DNA from: a bacterium (Candidatus Blackallbacteria) CG13_big_fil_rev_8_21_14_2_50_49_14
GTDB lineage: Bacteria; Cyanobacteriota; Sericytochromatia; UBA7694
NCBI GenBank assembly: GCA_002783405.1
Contig: PFGG01000053.1
Span: forward strand, 1-50,475
Length of the DNA: 50,475 nucleotides
Direction of reading: 5' to 3'
The notes below the pieces were generated by a model, which worked only from the letters and a program-made list of their open reading frames with translations, was not told where the DNA came from and searched no databases. Made by a program: the position numbers and the translations under genes. Positions 13,491 through 23,472 of the stretch are shown piece after piece (position 1 is the first letter of the stretch; the number at the start of each line of letters is the position of its first letter).

Positions 13491-14897
13491 ATGCAAACAG
13501 ATGTTTTTAAGTCTCACCGCTCGTTTATTCTGGAACTGACGCTCCGCTATTGCCTGTCATTTACCGTCCTGCTGCTTCTTTTGGGGGGCTTAAGCTATTT
13601 CAGCCTGCGTCGGGTTCTCTATGAAAATCTGGATCAGGGTCTGCAGGTCATCGGACGCAGCGAGGCTGATTTTGCAAGCAAAGGCCAGCATTTACACCTG
13701 CACCCCACTGCCAATGTGAATCCGGGCTCAGATACGCATACCCTGCCCCGCTATGTTCAGATCGTAAACCCAGAGGGGCAGATCCTGGCAGTAAACTTCG
13801 CACACCAAACAGCCCCACTCCCACTCGAATTGAAACGTTTGCATTCCAACAACAAACAAGCACAATACCTAACTGTTCATTATCAAAAGGCCGACTTTCG
13901 CCAGCTTTATCTTCCCTTTTCATACCAAAATCAAGTTTATTTTTTGATCGTGGTCAGCCCCTTGAGGCCCTTACAAAGCACCTTAGACTCTGTCTTCAAT
14001 GCCTATTTCTGGCTTTCAACCCTGCTGCTCTGTCTGGCAGGCATCATGGGCTGGCTTTTGGCCCATGATGCTGTCAAACCTTTGCATCGCATCACCCTGA
14101 CGGCCCAGGCAATTGGCGTGGGTCAACTTTCCGAACGCATTCCCATCGCCCCCGATACGCCACGAGAATTTGCAGAATTAACAGCAGTGCTCAATCAAAT
14201 GTTGGCACGTCTCGAAAACGCCGTACAAAATTTAAAACAATTCAGTGCAGATGCTTCTCACGAACTCAAAACACCGCTCAGTGTTTTAAAAGGGGAATTA
14301 CAGGTGGCCCTGCGCAGAGAACGCAATCCCCAGGAATACCAAGCCCTTTTAAACAGCAATCTTGAAGAGGTGAACCGCTTAATTGCGCTCACCGAAGGTC
14401 TATTGGCACTCAGTCGCTGGGAACAGGAAGAACCTCAAAAAGGGGAAAGCAATCTTCAGGCACTTTTCAAAGAGCTTCAGGCACGTTACGCGGATCTTGC
14501 CCAGAAACAGAAAATTGACTTGAAAATCGAAGTTCCTGAAAAAAATCTCCATTGCCCAGTGGCCCGACTGTATCTGAGCCAAATTCTCAGCAATCTGCTC
14601 GACAATGCTCTGCGTTTTTCTCAAGCCCAACAAACAGTATGGCTGCGGGCCGGAGAAACAAAGGAGCAGGTCTGGATTCAAGTTCAGGATCAGGGGCCCG
14701 GCATTGCCCCTGATGAACAGAAAAAGATTTTTGAGCGTTTCTACCAGATTGAAGCTTCACGCAGCGAAAATCGCAGCCACTTCGGCATCGGTTTGAGTTT
14801 GTCCAAAGCCATTACCGAAGCACACCAGGGCCAAATCAAGGTGGTTTCAAGCCCTCGCCAAGGCGCGTGTTTTGAAGTGCGCTTTCCCAAAAGCTAA
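13491..14897 (+). CDS. Two-component sensor histidine kinase (CusS/CopS-like heavy-metal sensor)
   Basis: Two TM segments flank a ~150-aa periplasmic domain. This is followed by a HAMP domain, then a HisKA domain (SADASHELKTPLSVLKGELQVAL), then an HATPase_c domain (N, G1, G2 boxes: DQGPGIAPDEQKKIFERFYQ, GIGLSLSKA). RBS AGAGG upstream. Confidence 0.9.
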   Translation: MQTDVFKSHRSFILELTLRYCLSFTVLLLLLGGLSYFSLRRVLYENLDQGLQVIGRSEADFASKGQHLHLHPTANVNPGSDTHTLPRYVQIVNPEGQILAVNFAHQTAPLPLELKRLHSNNKQAQYLTVHYQKADFRQLYLPFSYQNQVYFLIVVSPLRPLQSTLDSVFNAYFWLSTLLLCLAGIMGWLLAHDAVKPLHRITLTAQAIGVGQLSERIPIAPDTPREFAELTAVLNQMLARLENAVQNLKQFSADASHELKTPLSVLKGELQVALRRERNPQEYQALLNSNLEEVNRLIALTEGLLALSRWEQEEPQKGESNLQALFKELQARYADLAQKQKIDLKIEVPEKNLHCPVARLYLSQILSNLLDNALRFSQAQQTVWLRAGETKEQVWIQVQDQGPGIAPDEQKKIFERFYQIEASRSENRSHFGIGLSLSKAITEAHQGQIKVVSSPRQGACFEVRFPKS

Positions 14898-14989
14898 CGA
14901 GCACCGCGACAAACGATCTGCACGCCCCATCGAACATTAGCTCCCGCTCTCTCGCAGCAATTTTATTCTTTGTTTGACTTTGATTTGAA

Positions 14990-15085
14990 TATATTTAAAT
15001 CTCAATTAAATCAGTACCGATTAATTAATTCATTTATATTAATATATATAATAATAAAGATATTAATATTTAAATAAATGGGAGC
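14990..15085 (+). promoter_or_regulatory. Extremely AT-rich (>85% AT) promoter or UP region upstream of the 15091 operon, containing a repeated TATTAATAT motif
   Basis: Seen directly: TATTAATAT occurs at 15037-15045 and 15061-15069. The palindromic 14-mer TATATTAATATATA at 15035-15048 recurs at 39225-39238. Confidence 0.35.
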
Positions 15086-15090
15086 CCTCT

Positions 15091-17154
15091 ATGAGAATGC
15101 TTCAACCCCAGTTTTTATTCAGGTCACTTGGTTTTCTTCTCAGTGCTTTCATTCTCAACGCCTGTCAAATCACTTCGCCGTTTGAAAAATCTGCCTTGCC
15201 AGTCCAAACGCAGGCCGTTAAATCAGGGCAAATACTGAACCTCAAACTTCGCTTTGATAAAGGTTTTCAAACCCAATGCAGCCAATGTCGGGCAGAATAC
15301 GTCAAACTTGAAATCAAAGGGCCCGGTCATGTCAGCACGCCGCTCTATGCCTACGGTGCAGACGCCAATGGTTTTATCAAAGTCCTGAATGAAAATCCTC
15401 AACTCTCAGCGCAGGTACCAGCAGGCTCCAATTGGACGGCCATTGCAGGGCTTTATGCCAACAATAACCCAGATGCTGAACCGATACTGAAAGTAGGCGC
15501 GGCCTTCCATGTTCCCAATACGGATCCCCAGATCGAAATGGATCTTCGGGCCCTGCAAAGTGCAGAACTGATCAAAGCCCTGCATGAAATTGGCTCGAAC
15601 AAGGTCTTGACCCCACTTGACCTTGAAAAATACCAGGCCTTCAGCGACGCACTTTTGGGCGTGGTTCAAAACCCCGATGGTACCTATCAAATGAATCGGG
15701 TTCCAGCGGGTCAGGATCCAAGCAATTTTCTCGATGCCCGCAAAATTGCGGGTTTAATCGCACAGGACACCCTCTCAGAAATCAGTGAAAACGCAGGTCA
15801 AACACTCAATCCCAATCTACTCAGCTCGCTTCCCCAAGCCTTTCATACCTATCGTGCCAAAGAACTGACAGCCGGATTGACCCCCTTGAGCATGAATCCT
15901 GCGACAGGCCATCTTTTCAGTTTTGATATTCTGCAAAACACCAAACGGATCTATGGCCTCAGTTCTGCACTCGCAAATTTGCCCTTAAAGCCCGTCTTCA
16001 ATCCCGTCGAAGTCGGACGTCTTCAGAATATTTACCTTTCGCTCGGGCATGCCAATCCCAGTGGTACCCAACCCATACCTGTTATCTATTTGATGGAGTA
16101 TACAGGCCTGAACCGCATGAGCTTAAAAGCCCTGGATCAGCGATCCGGTGCCTTGGTCTGGAATTATAACTTTAACCAGACAGACAGTCTTGAAACACGC
16201 TTTGTACCTGTCAGCCAGACTGACAAGCGGGGAACAGCAAGCCCAGCTGATGATACGGATATTGTGTATACCACGCTTTTGGCCGATCACTGGAGTTTTC
16301 CAGGAACCCGTGGCGTCTATGCCCTCAGAGAGGGTCAGTTGGTTTGGCGCTATTCAGAGGACAGAGAATTCACGGGTTCGGGTGCGCTCTCCCCCGGGGG
16401 AGACAAGCTCTATCTGGTCACCCGTTCTGATCCCTTTAGCTCGGCGAAATTAATCGCCGTAAAAACACAACCGGCTGCGCCCCCCCAGGGGGAAAAAGCC
16501 TGGCTTCAGGAAGTGGATCTGGGAGAAGAAGCCTTTGATACAGCCACCCCTGTGGTGGGCACAGATGGCACAGTCTATGTCAATACGGTCAATACCGCCA
16601 ATCAACGACACTTTGTACAAATGCCAGGCCATTTACAAGCCATAGCAGCCAATGGCCAGCGCAAGTGGAAGGCTGCTTTGGCTGTTGCCTCATTTTTCCC
16701 ACCTGTGATTGGTCATCAAGGGGGTGAAGACATTCTTTACACCTCAACCGAAGGCGCAAAACTACATGCCATTCGTCAAAATGGCAGCGAAAAATGGCAG
16801 GTCACATTGCCTGGCACAGTGGGAGAAGGGCCCAGTGGCTCCCCCACTTTGGGTTTGAATCTGGCAGGAGAAACAGTTATTTATGTGCCCTGGGGCAATG
16901 GTCTGATCTATGCCATTCGGGATCAGGGGACAGAAGGAAAAGTACTCTGGGCACAAGCCCCCGGCGGTAAAAACAATCGTACCGTTTTACTGAAAGATGG
17001 CGTGCTCTATGCCACCACAATGGATGGTGGCGAAGGCCAATTTGTTCAAATTCGCTCCTTAAAAGTGAATACCCCCAATATGCCTCCCCAGGCTCCCTGG
17101 CCCATGCTGGGTGGAAATCTCATGGCCTCTGGCCGCAGTCAACTTCACGAATAA
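15091..17154 (+). CDS. Secreted protein or lipoprotein with a C-terminal PQQ-like (BamB-type) beta-propeller and an N-terminal ~330-aa domain of unknown function
   Basis: Signal peptide with ILNAC. The C-terminal half carries repeated LVW.Y / DG.LY..T / GTVYV blade motifs typical of PQQ-repeat propellers. The GGAG RBS is correctly spaced. Confidence 0.7.
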   Translation: MRMLQPQFLFRSLGFLLSAFILNACQITSPFEKSALPVQTQAVKSGQILNLKLRFDKGFQTQCSQCRAEYVKLEIKGPGHVSTPLYAYGADANGFIKVLNENPQLSAQVPAGSNWTAIAGLYANNNPDAEPILKVGAAFHVPNTDPQIEMDLRALQSAELIKALHEIGSNKVLTPLDLEKYQAFSDALLGVVQNPDGTYQMNRVPAGQDPSNFLDARKIAGLIAQDTLSEISENAGQTLNPNLLSSLPQAFHTYRAKELTAGLTPLSMNPATGHLFSFDILQNTKRIYGLSSALANLPLKPVFNPVEVGRLQNIYLSLGHANPSGTQPIPVIYLMEYTGLNRMSLKALDQRSGALVWNYNFNQTDSLETRFVPVSQTDKRGTASPADDTDIVYTTLLADHWSFPGTRGVYALREGQLVWRYSEDREFTGSGALSPGGDKLYLVTRSDPFSSAKLIAVKTQPAAPPQGEKAWLQEVDLGEEAFDTATPVVGTDGTVYVNTVNTANQRHFVQMPGHLQAIAANGQRKWKAALAVASFFPPVIGHQGGEDILYTSTEGAKLHAIRQNGSEKWQVTLPGTVGEGPSGSPTLGLNLAGETVIYVPWGNGLIYAIRDQGTEGKVLWAQAPGGKNNRTVLLKDGVLYATTMDGGEGQFVQIRSLKVNTPNMPPQAPWPMLGGNLMASGRSQLHE

Positions 17155-17175
17155 TCAGGAGAAAGGTTTTATTTC

Positions 17176-20100
17176 ATGAGTAGTATTTTCAGCAGCCGTC
17201 TCTATAGCCATCTGACTCAGGATCTGAATCAAACCCGTCTCGAAAATTATCAGGTCAATCGCTTTCAACGAACGGTTGAACAACAGGCCGCACAAGGCGA
17301 ACGAGAAAAACTCCTGCGTGAAGGACTCGAATACCATCAAGCCAAAATGGCGGATATGCAAACCCGTCTGAATGAGGTGCTTGAAAAACTGAACAATGCC
17401 TATCGCAGATATGTCGACAATAAAACCATGTACCGCAAGGTTGCCCAAGAAGAAAAGTATATGGGCACCAGCCAATTGCTCAATGATTTGCCCAATATTG
17501 ACAACCCCTCAGGACTGCCTGGGGTGTATCCCACAGGCCCGGCAGGAATTTTGCCCTTTGATGATCCAGGGAGAATCCGCAACTACAGCTACAACCCATT
17601 TTTTGGTTCAAAAGCAATTGATGAAAGCGATAAAACCCTGAATCGAACACATTGGCAGGTTCCCAATGAAATACTTGAAAAATCCTATACCGAAAATGGA
17701 GCTTTTTGGTCAAGTATCGCCTATCTCTGGGGTTGGGATCTTGATCGCATCAATGCGGCCTATGCCACCACCAGCAATGCCAATAACCTTCAGGTCAATG
17801 TCACCGCTCTGCAGCCCAATAAGCCGCAATACCCCCCGCTGCGTCCGGGGGATCGTTTTCCTTTGAATTGGAGTGATGGGCCCAGTGGCACCCTCCAGGA
17901 TTATCCAGCCATCAATATTCGCGGGCTGCGGCCGGGGGGCGTTGATTATAGCCATGCCACCGATTCGCTGGGAACAGGGGGCGATGAACTGACGTATACA
18001 GCCAATATCATCGGCCCTCCCAGCGGCAATGGAGCAGGCACTCCCCCTTCGGGAGGCAATCCTTTTTACGTGGACAATGGCACCTTTCTGGCAGCCGGAG
18101 ATACGGTCACCATCAATAAGTCAGGCGGCGGAGACCCCAATCAGACCCTTTCGGCTGTGGTGCCCCTGGCACCAGGCGATCCCTTTTACGATCCCGCATT
18201 CCCCAACCGACGCAAAATCTATACCAATGGTCCGGCTTATGGCTCCCCGGTGGACTCTGGCAGCATTCAAAAAAGTGTTCCCAGCAGCACAGCCCATATG
18301 AATGTGGTCGGAAAAAACAGCGTAAATTGGGGCTGGGAATTTGATGATCTCCCCCTTTCACTTGAAGTCACTTCTGTTTCTACCCAACCGGATGGAAATA
18401 CGATTCCGACGGGCTATAAGGTCGTTTACGATATTCCGCCAACGCATCCCTTCTATGAAGAATTCAAGGTACTGAATGGAACTGAACCCAAAATAACCGA
18501 TGCGCCCACAGAAATGGTCAAAGAACGCTTAAATAACGCAGGCTTTGATTATACGGGCTCGGTCTATTTTCCGGGCTCCAATGTGGTGGGGTTTCAGGTC
18601 GGCCCGCTGTTTCGAACCAGCCGGGGGGCATGGGTGGTTTCACAACCCGGTGAAAATGAATACGCGGCCCCCGGTCACTATACCTTTGCAGATGGCCCGA
18701 TTGCAGCCTTTGATTTGATCACCTGTCTGCCTGGACTGAGTCTGACAGATGCGACCCAAGTTTCTTTCCGTTACCGCTACCGCGTGCACCAAAACTCTGC
18801 CCAATTTGGTTCTACCTGGGATGACAGTGGGCCAGGCGTGCCCTCTCGCTTTGGCTTTAGTCGCCACGACTGGTCAAGCAACCCGGCCCAGCCCGATGTC
18901 TACGGAGGGGGCAATACCTTTGGCACGCCCATGCCCTCGACCTATCGCACCATTACCAATGAATCGATTCAAACCGCAGGAGGGGCCCCGATCAATATCA
19001 GCTTGGGCAGCCCCAAGAACCCAAATACCTTTGGTTCAGATTACTTAAAAACCAGCGGTTATGAAGAATTGGTTGCCCAAATTGTTCCTGTTCCAGGACG
19101 TGATGATGCCGTTCGGGTTCAATTTCTGTTTGAAGGGGATTTAAATGCACTAGAAATTGAAATCACAGATTTTCAGATTGTCAGCTATGATGGCACGCTG
19201 AATACCTGGGAACAGGGCAAATATACGCCCGGCAACGTCAACCCGGTGATCTGGGAAGGGGATCCGCAAATTACCCAGGCCGATAGTCCTGAAGAAGTGA
19301 TTAGCAAATATGTTCCCAATACCTATCAATTTACCCAGTTCAACGATCAATATACGAATGCCTTCAATATCGCCGATCGCAATGATATTGTCCGCAGCCC
19401 CTGGGAATTTGGTCTGCTCAATATGGACTCTGGCTCAGGCCTGAGTGGAGAACTCTGGCTGGACTTGAACGGACGCAGACTGAATTTGGATCACGATGCC
19501 GTCGTGGATCAGATCAAAGTCTGGGATGAGAGCATCGCAGCCCCTGTTCAAGCCAATACCGATATTCTTGAATCCGCAGCCATCGCGAAAGCCTATGCCT
19601 TTATTCCAGTTGAACACCCTGATGACGATTGTGGCCCCAATCCGGAGATGGAAGTCATTGCAGGTTCGGGCCCAGGCAACCCCTTCAATGCAGATGCGCC
19701 CACAGGGGGCATCCGCGTCGATTCTGTGGCCGGATTTACAGTGGGTGATGCCATTCTGATCGGAGGAGCAGGCCCCTATACCATCACGGGTCTGGTCAAT
19801 GATGCAGGTTCACCTGCCACGTTGACAACAGATCCTGTCTTTGACAATCCCGCCATCCCCAGCTATGAATACCGCCCCCCCTTTGATAGCTTGCCCGCAG
19901 GCGATCGACTCGGAACGTCTCTGCCCGTGGATCCTTCCAGTGATTTCCCGCTGACCCTGGGCGGTACGACCTATACGACCTATGGGGAGTTGGCTGCCGC
20001 CTTCCCGCCTCCCGCCTGGCACCCGGCTGCAGGCAACCCTTTGGATCCCCTCTATTGGGTAGAATATACCCAGTCTACTTCGCCCGCAGTGCCTGGGAGA

Positions 20101-23100
20101 CAGGAAGTTTATATCCATACCCCCATTGCTCCCCCAAGCGCAGGCACCCTTATTACCCCCTTTGTCGTCACTCCGGCCCCCCCCCATGTGGCCCAATTTG
20201 CAGATTCTGATCCCCTCAGCAGTTTTGCGCAACGCGAGGAACTGATGGGAGATGAAATCTTGATCGGTGAATTGCCACGTGATCCCGCCAGCATTGGCAT
20301 TGCCCCCTTGGATCCGGGCCGAACAGCCAATCCAACCGCCACTGACCCCAATAACAACGGTTTTACCTGGGCAGATGCAGATTTTTATGCGAACTTTGGG
20401 GTCTCCACTGAACATTCACCCTTTCCAAGTGAAGCCTATACCGTCAACAATCCCAGTAATTTTATTACAGGGGTTTCCAATGATCGGGGGGTCACCACCA
20501 ATCCCGATACGGCAGCAGCGGGCATAGTGGGAACCGTGGATCGTGTCATGGGTTCAGATATGGATATTGAATACCGAATTTCGATACCCACCCATGATGT
20601 CAACGTCTTGAGAAAAGAAAATAATTTATTGTTTAATTTGGGTTCGATCGACGAAAGGGATTGGGGCCTGGCAGTTCGAAATCCCTATATGGAATTCAGA
20701 ACCTCACCGGGATATACCACAGTGCCCCGCTATCGGGTCGATGCAGGTGGAAATATCTACGATCTTTTTGGCAAAGGCCATTATGAAGACGATGCTGCCC
20801 GAACTGAATTCAGTGCCCTCGATCAGGATTCGGTTCAAAGAGTTTATACCACGGCAGGCGGGGCCACGCTCAATAACCAGGTCAGCAACAGTGACAAAAG
20901 CTATGATTACAGCAATTATGCGGCCTATAATGCCGGTGCAGCCAATTTTGAAGACTATATCACCGGCCACAACCGACTGTCATTAAATGGAGACGACTAC
21001 AATCTCTTTGACTATGTGCCCGATCTGAATCTGGTTCCCGGTGATACAGAAGGCCGCCGCTTTGGTGAAACCTATATCGGGGCACTGCCCAGTAATTTTT
21101 ACTATTACCGCGAAAATCTCGATCAGGGGGTTTCAGGCAGTGGCACGCCCTTTACGGTCGATCCTGAACGCGATGGGGCTTTGGCACGCCTCAATGGCGA
21201 CAGCATGGCCGCCTTGAATTTTAATGGCCGTTTACAAAATCCTTCTGGCCGTTATGACATCGCCGACACAACGGTGGTACACAATCCCAATATGCCAGCC
21301 TGGTCAAGTGTGGTGATTGGCATTGCAGAGCAGGATGCAAAATTGCACAATGCCGAAAGAACCACCTCCAGCGCTTTTTGGCGGGGATTTAAGGCAGATG
21401 TACCACTGGCTTATGCCAAAAATGTCAATTTGGGGCAGACCCAAAATGTTCTGGGGCCAGAAAGGGCTGTCGGCGCCTCCAATTCAGTCTTCGCCACGAT
21501 GCAGGCCGGGGGTTCCAGTATCAGTTTGGAAATGGGCTCTGAAATCAATCGCTCGGGCCATTTGCTCATGAATGAGTGGGTCAATGGAAACATGCAACCC
21601 CATGCCATTCCCCTGCCGCTTTTCGATACCAGTACCTTTCCGCTGAACACCCCAAGCAACTATACTTTTTCTGCCTATGGGCCGGAAACAGTAACCCGAA
21701 CGGGCAGCCAATATATAGCCAATTTTCAGACAGATGTGCTCGATGCCGTGGATGGGCGCAAAGACAGCGTCATAGATCCCAGCTGGGCAGGCACCTTGCT
21801 CACGAATGCAGGAGGAACCGTCTCCGTCAGCCATCCCCCTGCGACCTGGAACAACGGCCTGATTTTGCATGTCGATGACGCAGCCGCTTTCGATGTTGAA
21901 GGCCCCCGCAATGAAGTCACGCTGGGCACAGATACCGCCACCCGGTACCGGGTGGTGTATAAAAACCCCACGGCCAGCCCGCAAACCTTGTTTTTGGTTC
22001 CCATCGCAGGGAGCGTACCCGCAGCCTATCAGAATTTTGTGCATACCGATCTACAGGTACGTCAGATCGTCGGCGAATATACGGTCAGTGTCACAGATCC
22101 AGCGGGTATTCCCAGCGCTTCAGGCACGCATCTGAAAATCGACTATGATGATCGGGGAACGCAAACTCCCGGTCAATTGGTCTCTGTTGCACTTTCTGCC
22201 GAGATGGATCGGGTCGGCAGATTTGCGCTCGATGATCCACGGGTGCCTGGGGTAGAAAGCGATGATCCCGCCACCCCCAGCGTGAATGAAGGGCAGAGAA
22301 TTGCCCCTGAAATTTTCAACTCCCCCCGAGGCTATGTTCAAAGCGACGCCCAACTCAGTTTAAACCTGGTCAGTCAAGACAAAGACGGCAATCTGCGTCC
22401 GCGAAAACTGAAGTCTGTGCGGGTTGAAATAGAGCATGGGGAACAGCTGATTCCCCATCAGGTGGCACAAGCCTATACCACCACAGGCCCCTTTGATATC
22501 AACGGAGAATGGCCGATTGCGATTTTTGAAGGTGATACCCAACTCAATCCCTATGTCAGCACAGATCTGGGGATTTTAGTCGGTCATTATCAGGGCATCA
22601 GCGATGGCAGCAATGCCATGAACAGTGTCTCCCCTTCGCTTGAGCTGATCTCCACAGAGGGCTTTGCGGTCGGGCAGGAAATTTCAGTCAACGGCGAAAA
22701 ACGCCTGGTTGCTGGCATTTCAGGCAATACCCTGAGCTTGGACAGCCCCTTGAGCACCCTTCCCCAACCAGGGGATCGTCTCAATTTGGGCAATGGTCTG
22801 GGAACCCGTGAACTCTCACTTTTTCTCAACAAATCCTATGCTATGTCAGCCGGTGCCCCAATCCGTATCCATCTGGAATATGATGAATACGATGTGATCG
22901 GATTTCCTCCCCGAATAGATACCTCGGCTCCTGTACGCAGTACCCAGGAGACGATCGGATTCAGCGATCCCAATACCGCTCAGCGGATGCAGATTCTGGA
23001 ATCCAATACCGGCGATGGAAGTGCAGGCAGTCCCATCGCTGTTCAATCGACCCTGGGATTCAATCCCGGTGATGTGGTGAATATCAACAGTGTGACACGG

Positions 23101-23472
23101 CGAATTACAGCCCTTGATAATGTGGGCAATACCCTGACCCTGGATCGCCCCTTGACCACCTCACTGGGTCAAACCCTGAGCAGTGGCACCATTTACCGCA
23201 GCGACTACGAAGACTTCGTACAGGTCGGTCCTGGCCGTTCAGGGGGAAGTTTTGAAAACGACTTGACCCAAGAACTCAAACGGATCATCGACAATCCTGA
23301 ATACCAGGAACTCTTACGTTACGGTCTGATGAAAAATCTCTTTATCAGTGCAGCCAGCAATGATCCCTTCGGCAATCTGATCAGTTCAAAACTCTTTTTA
23401 AACTGGATGCGCAATAAACGTCAGATGGAAATCAGCCAAACATCTTTTATGGCCTATTATAAGTCCATTTGA
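17176..23472 (+). CDS. Giant hypothetical protein (2098 aa) with an N-terminal coiled coil and no signal peptide. It is Gly/Pro/Asp/Thr/Asn-rich and carries three copies of a ~40-aa F.VGD.I.I.G....IT.L....TL.LD.PL motif
   Basis: A single uninterrupted 6.3-kb ORF sits 22 nt after the propeller gene, with RBS CAGGAGAAAGG. The motif copies begin near aa 848 (GFTVGDAILIGGAGPYTITGL), aa 1833 (GFAVGQEISVNGEKRLVAGISGNTLSLDSPL) and aa 1957 (GFNPGDVVNINSVTRRITALDNVGNTLTLDRPL). No family could be assigned from the sequence alone. Confidence 0.8.
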   Translation: MSSIFSSRLYSHLTQDLNQTRLENYQVNRFQRTVEQQAAQGEREKLLREGLEYHQAKMADMQTRLNEVLEKLNNAYRRYVDNKTMYRKVAQEEKYMGTSQLLNDLPNIDNPSGLPGVYPTGPAGILPFDDPGRIRNYSYNPFFGSKAIDESDKTLNRTHWQVPNEILEKSYTENGAFWSSIAYLWGWDLDRINAAYATTSNANNLQVNVTALQPNKPQYPPLRPGDRFPLNWSDGPSGTLQDYPAINIRGLRPGGVDYSHATDSLGTGGDELTYTANIIGPPSGNGAGTPPSGGNPFYVDNGTFLAAGDTVTINKSGGGDPNQTLSAVVPLAPGDPFYDPAFPNRRKIYTNGPAYGSPVDSGSIQKSVPSSTAHMNVVGKNSVNWGWEFDDLPLSLEVTSVSTQPDGNTIPTGYKVVYDIPPTHPFYEEFKVLNGTEPKITDAPTEMVKERLNNAGFDYTGSVYFPGSNVVGFQVGPLFRTSRGAWVVSQPGENEYAAPGHYTFADGPIAAFDLITCLPGLSLTDATQVSFRYRYRVHQNSAQFGSTWDDSGPGVPSRFGFSRHDWSSNPAQPDVYGGGNTFGTPMPSTYRTITNESIQTAGGAPINISLGSPKNPNTFGSDYLKTSGYEELVAQIVPVPGRDDAVRVQFLFEGDLNALEIEITDFQIVSYDGTLNTWEQGKYTPGNVNPVIWEGDPQITQADSPEEVISKYVPNTYQFTQFNDQYTNAFNIADRNDIVRSPWEFGLLNMDSGSGLSGELWLDLNGRRLNLDHDAVVDQIKVWDESIAAPVQANTDILESAAIAKAYAFIPVEHPDDDCGPNPEMEVIAGSGPGNPFNADAPTGGIRVDSVAGFTVGDAILIGGAGPYTITGLVNDAGSPATLTTDPVFDNPAIPSYEYRPPFDSLPAGDRLGTSLPVDPSSDFPLTLGGTTYTTYGELAAAFPPPAWHPAAGNPLDPLYWVEYTQSTSPAVPGRQEVYIHTPIAPPSAGTLITPFVVTPAPPHVAQFADSDPLSSFAQREELMGDEILIGELPRDPASIGIAPLDPGRTANPTATDPNNNGFTWADADFYANFGVSTEHSPFPSEAYTVNNPSNFITGVSNDRGVTTNPDTAAAGIVGTVDRVMGSDMDIEYRISIPTHDVNVLRKENNLLFNLGSIDERDWGLAVRNPYMEFRTSPGYTTVPRYRVDAGGNIYDLFGKGHYEDDAARTEFSALDQDSVQRVYTTAGGATLNNQVSNSDKSYDYSNYAAYNAGAANFEDYITGHNRLSLNGDDYNLFDYVPDLNLVPGDTEGRRFGETYIGALPSNFYYYRENLDQGVSGSGTPFTVDPERDGALARLNGDSMAALNFNGRLQNPSGRYDIADTTVVHNPNMPAWSSVVIGIAEQDAKLHNAERTTSSAFWRGFKADVPLAYAKNVNLGQTQNVLGPERAVGASNSVFATMQAGGSSISLEMGSEINRSGHLLMNEWVNGNMQPHAIPLPLFDTSTFPLNTPSNYTFSAYGPETVTRTGSQYIANFQTDVLDAVDGRKDSVIDPSWAGTLLTNAGGTVSVSHPPATWNNGLILHVDDAAAFDVEGPRNEVTLGTDTATRYRVVYKNPTASPQTLFLVPIAGSVPAAYQNFVHTDLQVRQIVGEYTVSVTDPAGIPSASGTHLKIDYDDRGTQTPGQLVSVALSAEMDRVGRFALDDPRVPGVESDDPATPSVNEGQRIAPEIFNSPRGYVQSDAQLSLNLVSQDKDGNLRPRKLKSVRVEIEHGEQLIPHQVAQAYTTTGPFDINGEWPIAIFEGDTQLNPYVSTDLGILVGHYQGISDGSNAMNSVSPSLELISTEGFAVGQEISVNGEKRLVAGISGNTLSLDSPLSTLPQPGDRLNLGNGLGTRELSLFLNKSYAMSAGAPIRIHLEYDEYDVIGFPPRIDTSAPVRSTQETIGFSDPNTAQRMQILESNTGDGSAGSPIAVQSTLGFNPGDVVNINSVTRRITALDNVGNTLTLDRPLTTSLGQTLSSGTIYRSDYEDFVQVGPGRSGGSFENDLTQELKRIIDNPEYQELLRYGLMKNLFISAASNDPFGNLISSKLFLNWMRNKRQMEISQTSFMAYYKSI

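Follow-up and report, generated by a model that had tools for sequence, protein, structure and literature searches.

We questioned what a 2098-residue giant protein and the lipoprotein encoded directly before it do in the cell, and whether the pair answers to the sensor kinase and response regulator genes between which it lies. The DNA analysed, a 50,475-nt stretch referred to here as the window, comes from Candidatus Blackallbacteria, a member of the Sericytochromatia, which are uncultured, non-photosynthetic relatives of cyanobacteria.

A tightly coupled gene pair with its own upstream region

The module and its immediate surroundings are laid out as follows.

13491-14897: HAMP-HisKA-HATPase kinase gene, upstream of the module
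14960-15090, + strand: AT-rich upstream region, putative promoter
15091-17154, + strand: lipoprotein gene, 687 aa, PQQ-type propeller
17176-23472, + strand: giant-protein gene, 2098 aa
23457-24143, - strand: OmpR-family regulator gene, convergent with the giant gene

Both reading frames of the module are uninterrupted and recur, conserved, in more than 20 other genomes, and so are real genes. They form a tightly coupled pair, as the first-pass annotation had proposed, with the intergenic gap corrected from 22 to 21 nt (17155-17175); this gap contains AGGAGAAAGG 5' of the giant-gene ATG. The giant-gene stop codon (23470-23472) lies within the end of the convergent regulator gene, which confirms the previously noted 16-nt overlap.

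The sequence preceding the pair is strikingly poor in G and C (13% GC at 14960-15080 vs 51% for the operon) and aligns with the sequence 5' of the partner gene in the four closest relatives (loci L001, L008, L009 and L016). The aligned regions share the blocks TTTAAAT..AATTAA..AATTAATT..ATATAT, and the genes further upstream differ. Because of this conservation, the AT-rich region belongs to the module and travels with it. The earlier description of an extremely AT-rich promoter therefore holds for the composition of 14960-15090; a sigma-70 consensus scan returned no plus-strand match there, and the promoter role stays putative.

The module is a paired, lineage-restricted family

The giant protein gave no match in Pfam, NCBIfam, PHROGs, PADLOC, PDB sequences or phage genomes, so that its designation as an orphan stands for every curated library searched. 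About 46 full-length homologues of about 1700-2500 aa were recovered, and every organism-named one derives from a Sericytochromatia metagenome-assembled genome. Likewise, the 23 loci recovered from GTDB species genomes all belong to Sericytochromatia or Blackallbacteria, and a profile of the N-terminus retrieved only 37 proteins among 1.84 billion representatives. In the collections searched, the two-gene module is restricted to Sericytochromatia.

Most genomes with long contigs carry two giant paralogues, each accompanied by its own full-length lipoprotein paralogue. The partner gene lies immediately upstream (0-80 nt) in eight distinct type-A loci (the window and seven others), at type-B loci the giant paralogue has a full-length partner paralogue of its own no more than 4 kb away, and at least seven genomes carry both types; a clade of mini proteins occurs as tandem pairs. 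Judged from these gene arrangements, the pairing of lipoprotein and giant is conserved and even co-duplicated. In 14 loci the pair is followed, within about 35 nt or with an overlap, by a Ser/Thr kinase with TPR repeats and an N-terminal zinc ribbon, which we regard as cytoplasmic because it is without a transmembrane segment. This kinase is the recurrent signalling neighbour of the family and is absent from the window. At type-B loci a further gene upstream encodes an acidic coiled-coil protein that is likewise cytoplasmic.

The partner is a predicted propeller lipoprotein distinct from BamB

Three segments were delineated in the partner.

15091-15165, + strand: signal peptide and lipobox (LNAC, Cys23), sequence FLLSAFILNAC
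15166-16290, + strand: N-terminal domain of about 375 aa, of no known family
16291-17154, + strand: PQQ-type beta-propeller (Pfam PQQ_2), through the stop codon

The partner has the signal peptide and following lipobox cysteine of a bacterial lipoprotein, and its lipidation is predicted. The Asn at -2 is atypical relative to the PROSITE lipobox pattern, and a cysteine in a lipobox-like context is kept in nearly all partner homologues. Conservation of its N-terminal domain, which has no Pfam or NCBIfam match, extends over the whole length even in the type-B paralogue of the partner (28% identity between the window partner and the paralogue at L005, E 1e-61, query residues 47-685). The PQQ_2 match covers residues 410-650 only and passes the gathering threshold (45.1 bits vs a cutoff of 27.6), and the PDB sequence matches, over residues 484-646, are PQQ-repeat and designed propellers (E down to 4.5e-31).

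The partner had previously been described as a BamB-like propeller joined to an unclassified N-terminal domain. BamB, a lipoprotein with a PQQ-like beta-propeller, belongs to the machine that assembles outer-membrane proteins, and its equivalog is an eight-bladed propeller of about 380 aa. The partner resembles it in being a lipoprotein with a PQQ_2-type propeller and may plausibly serve in the periplasm as a scaffold on which another protein is assembled; however, it is twice the size of BamB, carries the extra N-terminal domain and is genetically dedicated to a single giant protein with which it has been co-duplicated. The propeller and the unplaced N-terminal domain were thus upheld, whereas assignment as BamB was rejected, since the TIGR03300 equivalog scored only 24.7 bits against a cutoff of 285.2 and matched residues 510-578 only.

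Architecture and composition of the giant protein

The giant protein divides into the following regions.

17176-17490, + strand: aa 1-105, conserved N-terminus (MSSIFS...) with a helical hairpin or coiled coil
17491-17985, + strand: aa 106-270, family signature region, with YLWGWDLDRINA at 183-194 and QVNVTALQPN at 206-215
18010-18282, + strand: aa 279-369, lineage-specific inserted beta domain with a weak fourth copy of the barrel motif
18283-19695, + strand: aa 370-840, beta-sandwich region bracketed by the sole two cysteines (C517 and C819)
19711-19875, + strand: aa 846-900, barrel motif copy 1
20185-21204, + strand: aa 1004-1343, highly conserved central block with nearly invariant columns
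21205-22635, + strand: aa 1344-1820, stack of beta-sandwich (jelly-roll) domains, modelled with confidence
22639-22887, + strand: aa 1822-1904, barrel motif copy 2
23035-23196, + strand: aa 1954-2007, barrel motif copy 3
23200-23472, + strand: aa 2009-2098, conserved C-terminal domain of two helices and three strands, with the stop codon

The first ~270 and the last ~90 residues are conserved throughout the family, and between them lies a variable stretch built of beta-domains and marked by cassette-like gain and loss of barrel domains. AF2 places helices at residues 6-23 and 34-83, consistent with the N-terminal coiled coil of about 100 aa already recognized, and M1, S3, I4 and L9 are invariant in a 22-sequence alignment of this end that includes the distant loci L026-L029. 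The mini proteins of ~900 aa start differently (MPDLF/MFDLH/MPNIF) and share only aa 106-270, the central motif and the C-terminus with the giant. The C-terminal domain (AF2 pLDDT 70-88) persists as far out as P0045 and P0046, the most distant members (35-43% identity), and is also kept in the mini relative P0079 (33%). No other block of the family is as conserved as the signature region at aa 106-270, and the central block carries the motifs IPT.DVNVLRKENN, RYRVDAGGNIYD.FGKG, DDYNLFDYVPDL and NFYYYRE, together with RY.VD..GNIYD and YDYVPDL, which are common to the mini relatives. Because AF2 confidence is below 50 in both of these blocks, their function cannot be read from the models.

The three copies of a ~40-aa motif reported in the initial reading (about aa 846-900, 1822-1872 and 1954-2004) were not significant by self-BLAST and became so with homologue-built profiles, in which copies 2 and 3 match each other (iE 4e-12 and 1.5e-11) and the copy-3 profile matches copy 1 at 4.6e-6. 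HMMs additionally pointed to the weak fourth copy at residues 299-314 (iE 0.1-0.28), within the inserted domain that is absent from homologues P0003-P0011 and modelled as beta strands (pLDDT 70-84). At the DNA level, repeat D1 links copies 2 and 3 (22723-22758 and 23125-23160, 86% identical). In the AF2 models, which reach pLDDT 80-90 for residues 520-680, the variable middle consists of CBM32-like jelly rolls and small barrels, the latter corresponding to the repeated motif. A distant member, P0072, carries Pfam galactose-binding-type domains (Reelin_subrepeat-B, 3.8e-21; GH2_N, 5.5e-9), whereas the window giant has no sequence-level match to CBM32 or galactose-binding-domain-like jelly rolls, and carbohydrate binding by it is putative. 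The barrels resemble EF-Tu domain 2, a type that occurs in GH110 enzymes and in accessory domains of phage tailspikes; no catalytic domain accompanies these modules in the window giant.

The protein has a mass of 228 kDa, is acidic (pI 4.57) and is poor in Lys (2.0%). Its composition (G 9.2, P 7.9, S 7.9, T 7.4, D 7.1 and N 6.9%) bears out the Gly/Pro/Asp/Thr-rich body described before, and its N+T+S+G content of 31% is the highest among the 29 window ORFs. It contains exactly two cysteines in 2098 aa; both align with cysteines in 44 of the 46 homologues, most of which also have exactly two, and we infer a disulfide between C517 and C819.

Surface protein or intracellular scaffold

The composition, cysteine pattern and domain folds of the giant protein are best read as pointing to a surface or adhesion-type role, in line with one of the functions first suggested for it. 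Giant cyanobacterial surface and S-layer proteins such as Synechocystis Sll1951 and Synechococcus SwmA/SwmB are exported without a signal peptide, and they likewise combine great size with an acidic, Cys-poor composition and a modular, beta-rich body, and belong to the cyanobacterial lineage. Unlike these, the window giant has no RTX/GGxGxD repeats, no conserved type I secretion genes nearby and no similarity to curated families, and its ends are family-specific.

No hydrophobic segment was found in the giant protein, and hence neither a signal peptide, as had been stated at the outset, nor a transmembrane helix is predicted. Searches for Sec and Tat peptides, and NCBIfam searches for T9SS or other sorting domains, were negative. 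A T9SS, PEP-CTERM or LPXTG sorted protein was rejected on the lack of both an NCBIfam/Pfam match and a hydrophobic N-terminus. An RTX or type I secretion substrate was rejected as well: the protein has no GG.G.D or D.D.DG motifs and no RTX nonapeptide repeats, and ABC or HlyD-type secretion genes are not conserved in about 30 family loci. A non-RTX C-terminal secretion signal may be present. The giant has no recognised secretion signal and no export machinery is conserved beside the family genes, which speaks against export, and the commonest co-transcribed neighbour is a cytoplasmic kinase, which fits an intracellular giant equally well.

The giant could accordingly be pictured as an intracellular scaffold or substrate of the Ser/Thr-TPR kinase, with its conserved ends mediating oligomerisation or kinase docking. 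The closely spaced kinase gene, the cytoplasmic coiled-coil protein at type-B loci and the absence of a signal peptide and transmembrane segment all suit this explanation. Nevertheless, we consider it unlikely, given two conserved cysteines in about 2000 aa, an acidic, Lys-poor, N/T/S/G-rich composition combined with CBM-like jelly rolls, and a dedicated exported lipoprotein that has been co-duplicated with the giant.

Flagellar, phage and two-component explanations

Conserved ends around a variable middle also recall flagellins and hook-associated proteins, and in particular the giant flagellins, in which a conserved core is formed by the termini and a hypervariable, expandable middle is exposed. 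On this explanation the giant would be a filament subunit or axial-type protein exported by a flagellar or type III apparatus, which would agree with the missing signal peptide, the invariant extreme N-terminus (MxSI...) and the paralogue and mini-clade tandem pairs, reminiscent of FlgK/FlgL or FlaA/FlaB. One type-A locus (L002) divergently adjoins fliP-fliQ-fliR-flhB, and four type-B loci have a FliK-like Flg_hook protein encoded about 5 kb away. However, flagellar genes are near a minority of loci and not in the window, none of nine members scanned matched Flagellin_N/C, Flg_bb_rod or any other flagellar family at E up to 0.1, and the AF2 model closes the C-terminal domain with beta strands instead of a terminal helix; nor is either partner, lipoprotein or kinase, of a flagellar kind. 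We therefore hold a flagellar-type filament to be very unlikely.

It is highly improbable that the giant was domesticated from a phage tail-fibre or tailspike-like protein, or that it forms part of a contractile injection apparatus. The contractile role raised in the first-pass annotation found no evidence, and membership of an ordinary phage-tail family, which it had named as one outcome that would overturn its reading, was not observed: PHROGs gave no matches, tblastn against phages gave none, BFVD TM-scores were below 0.1 and no tail genes are near family loci.

The location of the pair suggests a cargo and helper system inserted into, and controlled by, a metal-responsive CusS/CusR-like two-component system. 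The flanking kinase best matches the heavy-metal sensor subfamily TIGR01386 (259 bits, below the cutoff of 292.55), the regulator best matches TIGR01387 (237.7 bits, below the cutoff of 279.2), and the module adjoins a gene cluster for Cus-like RND efflux and a Cu-ATPase. However, the two flanking genes are convergent single genes 8.5 kb apart and not an interrupted operon, and the flank is particular to this genome, occurring in 0 of about 25 homologous loci. In the four closest relatives, whose giants are 77-79% identical to the window giant over the N-terminal 1003 aa, the pair resides in a different, mutually syntenic context. An orthologue of the flanking kinase was searched for and none was found, and no flanking repeats suggestive of a mobile element were detected. 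Promoter and terminator scans at the module gave no evidence either way, and no terminator-free read-through could be inferred. With unconserved flanks and its own conserved AT-rich upstream region, the module appears independent of the flanking kinase and regulator; neither insertion between a kinase and its regulator, nor two-component control, nor a conserved kinase-lipoprotein-giant-regulator order is supported, and stress-responsive Cus control is extremely unlikely.

A proposed signal-peptide-free surface structure

We tentatively favour, at somewhat under even confidence, a reading in which the giant is an exported surface protein with a lipoprotein assembly or anchoring partner, under Ser/Thr kinase control elsewhere in the family, with the flanking kinase and regulator incidental. 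The giant would leave the cytoplasm by a route that uses no signal peptide and would form or decorate a cell-surface structure, be it a fibre, a layer or an adhesin. Export, anchoring or self-assembly would fall to its conserved ends, and the variable, glycan-binding-like middle would be exposed. The Sec-exported lipoprotein would be dedicated to the giant, as a partner for its assembly or anchoring in the periplasm or at the outer membrane. Control of the system may in most lineages lie with the co-transcribed Ser/Thr-TPR kinase of the cytoplasm, whose gene is missing beside the window copy, and the Cus-like kinase and CopR-like regulator would belong to the neighbouring copper/heavy-metal efflux cluster.

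Taken further, and as a quite unlikely extension, the family may represent an extracellular polymer or appendage new to description and a defining trait of the Sericytochromatia. Such a structure would be built from a ~2000-aa subunit that assembles through family-specific termini, following a flagellin-like logic without homology to flagellins, and it would be exported without a signal peptide, aided by a propeller lipoprotein and controlled by a Ser/Thr-TPR kinase.

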